The translations under genes were made by a program, and so were the position numbers. From a virus (Duplodnaviria > Caudoviricetes): a stretch of DNA of 28,905 bases. This document shows positions 11,263-12,101 of the stretch, piece by piece; position 1 is the first letter of the stretch, and each line of letters begins with the position of its first letter. The stretch spans positions 1-28,905 of the IMG/VR virus record IMGVR_UViG_3300025070_000164; one strand, written 5' to 3'. The notes under the pieces were generated by a model that was not told the origin of the DNA, made no database searches, and saw only the letters and a program-made list of their open reading frames with translations.

Positions 11263-11338
11263 GCGTTTATATTAATTATTAAATAAATTTCCATAAAAAC
11301 CTACGGTATCATTAGGTTTGTATCGTGTATTAAAAGTA

Positions 11339-11376
11339 GACGTATTTGTTTGCCCCGTCGGGCTATTTAGTTTCCC
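11339..11376 (-). other. Putative -1 programmed ribosomal frameshift element (slippery heptamer + pseudoknot)
   Basis: In-frame G_GGA_AAC (11376-11370) directly before TAA, 6-nt spacer, then GCCC-GACG-GGGC-AAACAAATA-CGTC. The -1 frame is open for 32 more codons to TAA at 11274-11272. Confidence 0.65.
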
Positions 11377-12101
11377 GGCGCGTATGCTCCAATAGCTGCG
11401 CCCGCTATATTTCCTACACCACTTAAAGCTCCACCCCAAGCTGCTGCTTGAGCGGATTTTGCATCAGCCTCTTGTTGTTGCGCTTGTGATATTTGACCCG
11501 CGGCTCTATTAAGATCCATATTTGTTCTATTTTCTTTAGCTTGAAACATAAACTGTTTACCTGCTGCTTGAGCTGATTGAACCCTTTGCCCTTCTGAAAT
11601 AGCAATACTTTGTAATCTTTGTTGCTCAGACATTTTCATTTGCTGAAGTTGTTGTTCACCTTGAGCTTTAAGTTTTTCGTTTTGAGCCTCTTGTTGTTCT
11701 ATACTTGCGGCAACACCTTTTTTGCTTTGTAAAGCAGCTTGCGCTAAAGCAGTAGCACCTCCAGCGCTAGCACCTGTAGCTCTTAATGTGTCTAATGTAT
11801 TTGCTAAAGCTATATCAGCTTGCTCAATTTGTATTTCAGCGGCACTAGTAGCAACACCTAAGTTAGCGTAAGGATTAGAAATCATACCGCTTAAATCTTC
11901 TGCTGAAGCAGATAAATCTGTTACTCCAGAATAAGGATTTATTATAGTTTGTCTACTTGCTTTTATAGAATCTAGCTCGCGCTGTGCTGCGTTTTTATTT
12001 CTCTGAGCTCTACCCGCTGCTTTTTTTGCTTGATTAGCACTAACAGCTCCTCCTAACAAAGAAGCTCCTGCGCCAACGGCTAATGCTGTTACTAATCCCA
12101 T
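11367..12101 (-). CDS. Putative small ejection/DNA-transfer protein (T7 gp14 / P22 gp7-like position)
   Basis: Gly/Ala-rich hydrophobic N- and C-terminal helices flanking a Gln/Ala-rich coiled coil; follows the GNAT gene. Confidence 0.7.
   Translation of the reverse strand: MGLVTALAVGAGASLLGGAVSANQAKKAAGRAQRNKNAAQRELDSIKASRQTIINPYSGVTDLSASAEDLSGMISNPYANLGVATSAAEIQIEQADIALANTLDTLRATGASAGGATALAQAALQSKKGVAASIEQQEAQNEKLKAQGEQQLQQMKMSEQQRLQSIAISEGQRVQSAQAAGKQFMFQAKENRTNMDLNRAAGQISQAQQQEADAKSAQAAAWGGALSGVGNIAGAAIGAYAPGN

Follow-up and report, generated by a model that had tools for sequence, protein, structure and literature searches.

A putative small ejection gene of a marine phage very probably carries, at its 3' end, a programmed -1 frameshift cassette, in which a compact H-type pseudoknot would act as the stimulator and from which a short and an extended isoform of the protein would be made. 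The cassette lies on the minus strand of the window, by which we mean the whole 28,905-nt stretch of viral DNA analysed here, and all the elements on which the original prediction was built, namely the heptamer, the stop, the spacer, the stems, the linker, the -1 frame, a 104-nt gap to the next gene and an upstream GGAG, are indeed found there.

The 0-frame gene (11367..12101, minus strand, as are all the features that follow) encodes 244 amino acids of a putative virion protein resembling T7 gp14 or P22 gp7 and ends in CCG GGA AAC UAA, so that its final two codons contain the slippery heptamer G_GGA_AAC (11370..11376) in phase with the reading frame. A spacer of 6 nt (11364..11369; 4-6 nt in relatives), consisting of the 0-frame stop UAA and three further nucleotides, leads to the predicted pseudoknot. 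Its parts are, in order, the 5' arm of stem 1, GCCC (11360..11363), a loop 1 of a single G (11359), the 5' arm of stem 2, ACG (11356..11358), the 3' arm of stem 1, GGGC (11352..11355), an A-rich loop of 9 nt that crosses stem 1 (11343..11351; 7-9 nt in relatives, with only the AAYA at its 3' end kept), and the 3' arm of stem 2, CGU (11340..11342). Reading in the -1 frame continues for 32 codons up to a stop (11272..11370), which predicts a product of 276 residues, and the ATG of the next gene (9550..11262; 570 aa, likely a second ejection protein) follows 9 nt past the -1 stop. Upstream lies a GNAT-like gene of 135 aa (12103..12510; phrog_17252, with a weak Acetyltransf_1 match at E 0.08), which by synteny is a conserved marker of the gene order. 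Of the 516 X_XXY_YYZ heptamers in the window, counted on both strands and in any frame, none but the one at the end of the 244-aa gene precedes a pseudoknot geometry of this kind. Plain folding of a 138-nt stretch, using a model that has no pseudoknots, gave an ordinary stability (z -0.02).

As to the mechanism, a ribosome would stall with the Gly-Asn codons in its P and A sites, owing to the mini-pseudoknot 6 nt ahead and to the stop codon coming next. A fraction of ribosomes would then slip by -1 in tandem, with GGA re-pairing as GGG and AAC as AAA, pass the stop and add a 32-residue tail rich in Thr, Ser, Asn, Pro and Gly and ending in an aromatic motif, which would bring the product to 276 aa, while unslipped ribosomes would end at 244 aa. 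The slippage, its efficiency, the presence of both isoforms in the virion and the function of the tail are all things that we infer.

The first line of evidence comes from relatives. Altogether, 512 loci were collected, 383 of them with the gene and 253 with its stop and 200 nt beyond, which correspond to 201 distinct ends. Enrichment was assessed on the 191 distinct ends that came from signal-blind scans, the window itself included, and a gap to the next gene was called long if it measured at least 55 nt (21 ends) and short if it was below that (170 ends), a cut-off set after seeing the data. A targeted scan, whose matches were mostly due to chance, added 4 distinct ends that were excluded from the enrichment test; unrelated genes accounted for 13 of the 22 matches in one scan and for 1 of the 2 in another. 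The conservation of the heptamer, which had been proposed as a check, is borne out: an in-phase X_XXY_YYZ occupies the last two codons in 17 of 21 long-gap ends as opposed to 2 of 170 short-gap ends (Fisher p 1e-18, with lineages that are not independent), the background rate of such heptamers being 0.34% per codon. For G_GGA_AAN in particular, the counts are 13/21 and 0/170, respectively. What is more, the G+C content of the 25 nt past the stop is 0.54 in long-gap and 0.20 in short-gap loci.

Twenty-nine ends in the full collection were classed as frameshift-type, after removal of L021, a fused gene with a miscalled gap that was nevertheless kept among the 21, and of L076, which is in frame. 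Eighteen of them carry G_GGA_AAG, 4 another G_GGA_AAN, 4 an A_AAA_AAG or A_AAA_AAC, and 3 lack a full heptamer. The variation in the last base of the heptamer may tune the shift rate, and the heptamer-less ends, A_AAG-stop in L050 and G_GGG-stop in L128 and L153, would fit single-tRNA slippage at the stop. In the latter two, G_GGG UAG is followed by a run of C, so that G and C could pair into a hairpin with the stop in its loop; their -1 frames extend over 40 and 60 codons, one of them encoding a homologue of the L460 tail. The stop is followed by a hairpin of -4 kcal/mol or lower in 21/29 frameshift-type ends and in 0/172 others, and in the frameshift-type ends the median hairpin is -6.1 next to the site versus -1.5 further down the same gap. 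As a side observation, UAG serves as the 0-frame stop in 15/29 frameshift-type and 15/172 other ends, which may aid pausing or simply reflect a G-rich stem. The GGAG located 10 nt upstream of the heptamer (11387..11390), which had been proposed to act like the upstream part of the dnaX signal, did not hold up: a similar element occurs in 14/29 frameshift-type ends, many of them close kin, and in 45/172 controls. It is not conserved as part of the cassette and is probably incidental to Gly-Ala codons, and an upstream SD-like stimulator was rejected on these grounds.

The second line of evidence concerns the -1 frame itself. It fills at least 70% of the gap in 19 of the 21 long-gap loci, the two misses being cases of a miscalled next gene, as compared with 3/21 for the +1 frame and 1/21 for the 0 frame. 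Among the distinct substitutions within the clade of the window, 12 of 17 leave the -1-frame amino acid unchanged, where 5.9 would be expected (p 0.0015), versus 3/15 and 2/15 in the other two frames, and length changes in the tail come in multiples of three; in this clade the -1 frame is not only open, as the original prediction had it, but also under coding selection. The synonymous lean goes in the same direction in L014/L226, L128/L460 and L001/L330; no synonymous excess was seen in L008/L044 (1/6), L088/L094 (4/26) and L107/L161. Furthermore, 11 of the 29 extensions match tails that other homologues carry in frame (293 tails searched), compared with 0/58 for other-frame controls, and the window's tail is identical to the in-frame tail of L071 at 28 of 29 residues.

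Could the shift be real, yet serve mainly to regulate the neighbouring gene? Here, termination in the -1 frame near the next start would couple the translation of the second ejection gene to that of the first, and the tail would be secondary. This is the main functional rival to our reading: the -1 stop lies 3-21 nt ahead of the next ATG in 18/21 long-gap loci and overlaps it in one, the same 3-21 nt are the usual spacing of ordinary genes in the family, and the tails are highly variable. However, an ancestral in-frame stop would leave just the same spacing, and the fact that amino-acid motifs of the tail are kept across lineages through synonymous change, together with the occurrence of the same tails in frame, points to a role of the peptide. 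We therefore regard coupling as the principal function as unlikely, if deserving of serious consideration.

A different explanation is that there is no recoding at all and that a DNA deletion truncated a dispensable tail, the -1 frame being its recent relic. In L071, the window-type tail is put in frame by a 16-nt insertion between 9-nt direct repeats, and the gain or loss of such a unit would be an easy slipped-strand event; in L348 and L120, the same tail is out of or in frame depending on the length of an A run (8 vs 10), and most homologues fare well with a short C-terminus. The difference between L348 and L120 may reflect DNA or transcriptional slippage and not a structured frameshift site. 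However, a relic would not have G_GGA_AAN at its end in numerous distinct branches (29 tips, 20 state changes), nor would it keep covarying stems, indels that preserve the frame (a 6-nt insertion and a compensated pair) and a synonymous bias past the stop. The direction of change seems to be the opposite one as well: the in-frame L071, L076 and L027 retain the heptamer and the hairpin out of phase, and in the tree L076, whose stem 2 contains a mismatch, falls within the frameshift-type genes, so that the in-frame forms named here would seem to be derived. Taken as a whole, the relic explanation strikes us as very unlikely.

Programmed frameshifting thus stays the preferred reading, and its distribution tells something about its use. 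On the protein tree, the frameshift state requires 20 changes for 29/201 tips, as opposed to 27.5 with shuffled labels, so the state is clustered, yet its gains, losses or exchanges have been numerous. The cassette is carried by roughly 1 gene in 10 and the signal is without counterpart in about 9/10 of the homologues, which means that the mixture of isoforms is not needed family-wide; short-only and tailed-only alleles both exist, so neither isoform is essential family-wide either. The ratio in the mixed state is best read as tuning. The tails vary strongly between lineages, and in 15/201 homologues from scattered lineages (e.g. P0026, P0034) a Peptidase_S74-like chaperone domain is fused in frame at the C-terminus. 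Self-cleavage of an S74 domain would leave the short form. In other words, the tail, as the compared sequences present it, is best read as an optional and exchangeable C-terminal module that may be missing, in frame, replaced by an S74-type domain or present in a mixture.

The third line of evidence is the covariation of the mini-pseudoknot. In an alignment of 8 sequences, chosen for fitting the small geometry and including 5 that are close kin, 56 of 56 cells are paired and 5 of the 7 pairs have changed on both sides, 3/4 in stem 1 and 2/3 in stem 2, in line with the covariation that had been put forward as a check of the stems. Stem 1 has four pairs only, one of them being G-U in L082 and L084, and the pair at the junction of the stems is G-C in 7/8 sequences and A-U in L094. 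The first base of the loop is always G (8/8) and has no conserved partner, and consequently stem 2 is taken to have three pairs and loop 1 a single base. The original prediction had let the entire loop GACG pair with CGUC; this stands for three of the loop bases, while the first G is left unpaired. A stem 2 of four pairs was rejected, since both L094 and a contig variant from runs X13 and X14 have A in the position of the fourth partner, and no loop 1 would be left.

The same contig variant adds compensated changes of its own, namely a double change in stem 1 (11360 and 11355), another in stem 2 (11357 and 11341), and a loss of one base at 11364 that is balanced by a gain of one at 11339; its loop 1 is again G. 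Two further sequences, L533 and L521, also have G in loop 1, both having been selected by a pattern in which stem 2 was left unspecified. L533 forms 3/3 stem-2 pairs, one of them through a double change, and L521 only 2/3. Other lineages have 5-bp stems with loops of 6-7 nt, some of which could form a second stem and some of which are probably plain hairpins. Beside this, window-type stems are found with another tail and the reverse (L533, L521, L088, L094, L330), which indicates recombination inside the 100-nt cassette. A search of Rfam returned a single chance match (E 7.2, on the opposite strand). The heptamer together with stem 1 has 18 viral matches, 3 of them in the 244-aa gene family; the remaining 15 show no HMM match to the family and, by eye, no similar arrangement.

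How does this element compare with known frameshift stimulators? The original prediction likened it to the luteoviral signals. The signal of BWYV shares the heptamer, the 6-nt spacer and a 3-bp stem 2 with the window and has an AACAAA loop, but its stem 1 is 5 bp long and one base is extruded at the junction, where the element described here has 4 bp and no extruded base. More generally, the P1-P2 signals of poleroviruses and enamoviruses (BWYV, PLRV, ScYLV, PEMV-1) are compact H-type pseudoknots with an A-rich loop, placed a few nucleotides after the heptamer, as in our case. In these luteoviral pseudoknots (10.1101/2024.12.07.627321; PMC10321173; PMC5382211; PMC6007934), the loop-1 base, a protonated C in ScYLV, forms a base triple or quadruple, whereas loop 1 is an invariant G here. 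AACAAA is present in the window, but is changed in L075, L088, L094 and L460. Of the proposed likeness, it is thus the topology that survives: the element would work like the luteoviral pseudoknots, yet it is not a member of them.

Judging by its predicted fold, the element comes closest to the Watson-Crick coremin pseudoknot (xrRNA-WCC) and not to that of BWYV. As described in PMC10321173, the two share a tetraloop in which an irreplaceable G makes up a 1-nt loop 1 and bases 2-4 form a 3-bp stem 2, as well as the G-C pair at the stem junction, and the loops GGCG of Hit2 and GGAG of SPlV5 are the same as those of L077/L533 and of L460, respectively. Moreover, such a pseudoknot gave approximately 30% -1 shift in reticulocyte lysate without hp2, an activity lost when the G was changed, and the authors knew of no xrRNA-C with a natural slippery site. 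The differences are equally clear. Its crossing loop is 5 nt long, as implied by the numbering in that source, versus 7-9 nt here, and there is no hp2 here, for which two reasons we do not file the element as an xrRNA. What is more, we deal with a coding overlap and a natural slippery site in a DNA phage, while the xrRNA-WCC examples in the source belong to RNA viruses of eukaryotes, and no homology is claimed.

This likeness and the location in an intergenic gap are also what would speak for an intergenic RNA element, either an xrRNA-like decay barrier or a terminator, next to which the heptamer would be incidental. An xrRNA would, however, need a hairpin directly 3', and there is none; terminator-like sites were found neither on the coding strand nor at the stem; and an incidental heptamer would account neither for its fixed distance of 4-6 nt nor for coding selection that runs through and past the structure. 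We consider this explanation highly improbable. Finally, next to no weight attaches to an assembly error, stop-codon readthrough or a +1 shift in place of -1: although the 0 frame of the window stays open for 21 more codons, it fills 70% of the gap in just the one long-gap locus mentioned above, the +1 frame closes one codon past the stop, and the sequence from 11200 to 11500 is identical in the contigs of runs X1 and X6 (which may be the window's source), several assemblies agree, and divergent relatives retain the same 0-frame stop, so that the indel check attached to the original prediction came out in its favour.

With regard to phages, the heptamers themselves are known to be slippery: according to PMC5009743, G_GGA_AAG promotes shifting strongly in E. 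coli, G_GGA_AAC is among the sites listed for haloviruses, capsid and tail proteins of phages are extended by a -1 shift, and stimulation by pseudoknots is established on bacterial ribosomes. In such systems, namely the gene 10 capsid of T7 and T3, the head and tail of Lactobacillus phage A2 and the capsid of Listeria phages A118 and A500, slippage close to the stop codon lengthens the protein at its C-terminus and yields two products, as would be the case here, and related phages may carry the extension in frame, again as here. Unlike in these systems, the gene with our cassette would encode an internal ejection protein and not a capsid or tail protein, the tail is a low-complexity stretch of 15-60 aa and not an Ig-like domain, and the host is probably a member of the Bacteroidota. 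Tail assembly chaperones dominate among annotated cases: in one set of phages, 2397 of 2476 genes with an annotated frameshift are of this type (PMC10885494). Lambda gpG/gpGT likewise makes short and extended products in a fixed ratio by a -1 shift at X_XXY_YYZ in a dsDNA phage, but it belongs to another gene family and to long-tailed phages, has a large second domain and is widely conserved, where the present cassette is patchy. Searches of the listings of an open-access library turned up no report of frameshifting in a phage ejection protein, nor any in phages of Flavobacteria.

The identity of the gene deserves some comment. The window is a podophage virion module, with terminase, portal, capsid and tail-type genes that match PHROGs. 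The 244-aa gene, which has thousands of homologues, comes after the tail genes and the acetyltransferase and ahead of two larger virion proteins, and the order GNAT - small - 570 aa - 2276 aa is the same as in Flavobacterium phage elemo, whose syntenic gene is annotated as a virion structural protein. Such an order, a small gene followed by two larger virion genes, is what we take to mark ejection operons. In the ESM Atlas, the protein scored 0.94 against a cluster of whose members 11% carry T7_gp14 and 0.90 against another where P22_gp7 occurs in 58%; Pfam T7_gp14 is hit weakly by 4 of 61 family members (E 0.018-0.1), hhalign of the family against the syntenic isolate proteins gave 0.9% and 5%, and the 244-aa protein has no significant match in Pfam, PHROG, PDB or profile comparison. 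The name given to the protein in the original prediction therefore holds as far as gene order and language-model look-alikes go and draws no backing from a family match, and a small ejection protein similar to T7 gp14 or P22 gp7 is the likely product. In cultured phages, tblastn of the gene against a phage collection gave no match, and the syntenic genes of elemo, Panino and a Manatee Spring phage have gaps of 2-3 nt or overlap their neighbours and lack the frameshift signal. As for the host, 84 of the 85 phage-record matches of the capsid protein are to phages of Flavobacterium, Cellulophaga or Maribacter, with identity below 60%, and the single copy of the gene family in GTDB, of the short-gap type without the signal, is in a Flavobacteriales MAG; these two findings make a Bacteroidota host likely.

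A second candidate site lies in the same operon. At the start of the 2276-aa gene (9400-9293, minus strand), there is GUA AAG at codon 48 and a further A_AAG at codon 42, with a Cys-rich -1 frame of 33 codons and a GC-rich structure downstream (plain-folding z -1.3), and in 37 of 47 distinct starts of the giant gene a Tyr-Gly...Gly...Phe-Phe motif is encoded by the -1 frame and by no other. The operon would therefore seem to contain two distinct frameshift cassettes, a widespread one in the giant gene and a patchy one in the small gene. As a speculation that we offer tentatively and would not bet on, marine Bacteroidota podophages may recode their ejection operon twice, with the exchangeable small-gene module and its mini-pseudoknot of Watson-Crick coremin type serving as a dial, open to evolutionary adjustment, for the proportion of tailed subunits in the channel that is ejected; lineages would switch between the short-only, tailed-only and mixed states by small indels.

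If the main reading is correct, the internal ejection machinery joins tail chaperones, capsids and tail tubes as a place where phages use -1 frameshifting, and it does so in an abundant group of uncultured marine phages, whose annotated proteomes then miss one isoform. The relatives provide a natural set of pseudoknots, 22-24 nt in size and covarying, that have a G in loop 1 and lie beside a slippery site, a geometry for which stimulation of shifting had until now been seen in engineered constructs only. Some 30 natural variants of the cassette could be used for testing shift stimulation on Bacteroidota ribosomes, and the natural in-frame and tail-less alleles are ready controls for the function of the tail.

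Lastly, other structural genes of the window differ in number from those of cultured relatives. Two paralogous pairs, phrog_14543 (18972-19919 and 20529-21251) and phrog_13977 (17571-18965 and 19932-20522), correspond to single genes in the cultured relatives, and phrog_14478, also single there, is split across two genes in the 12516-17565 region.
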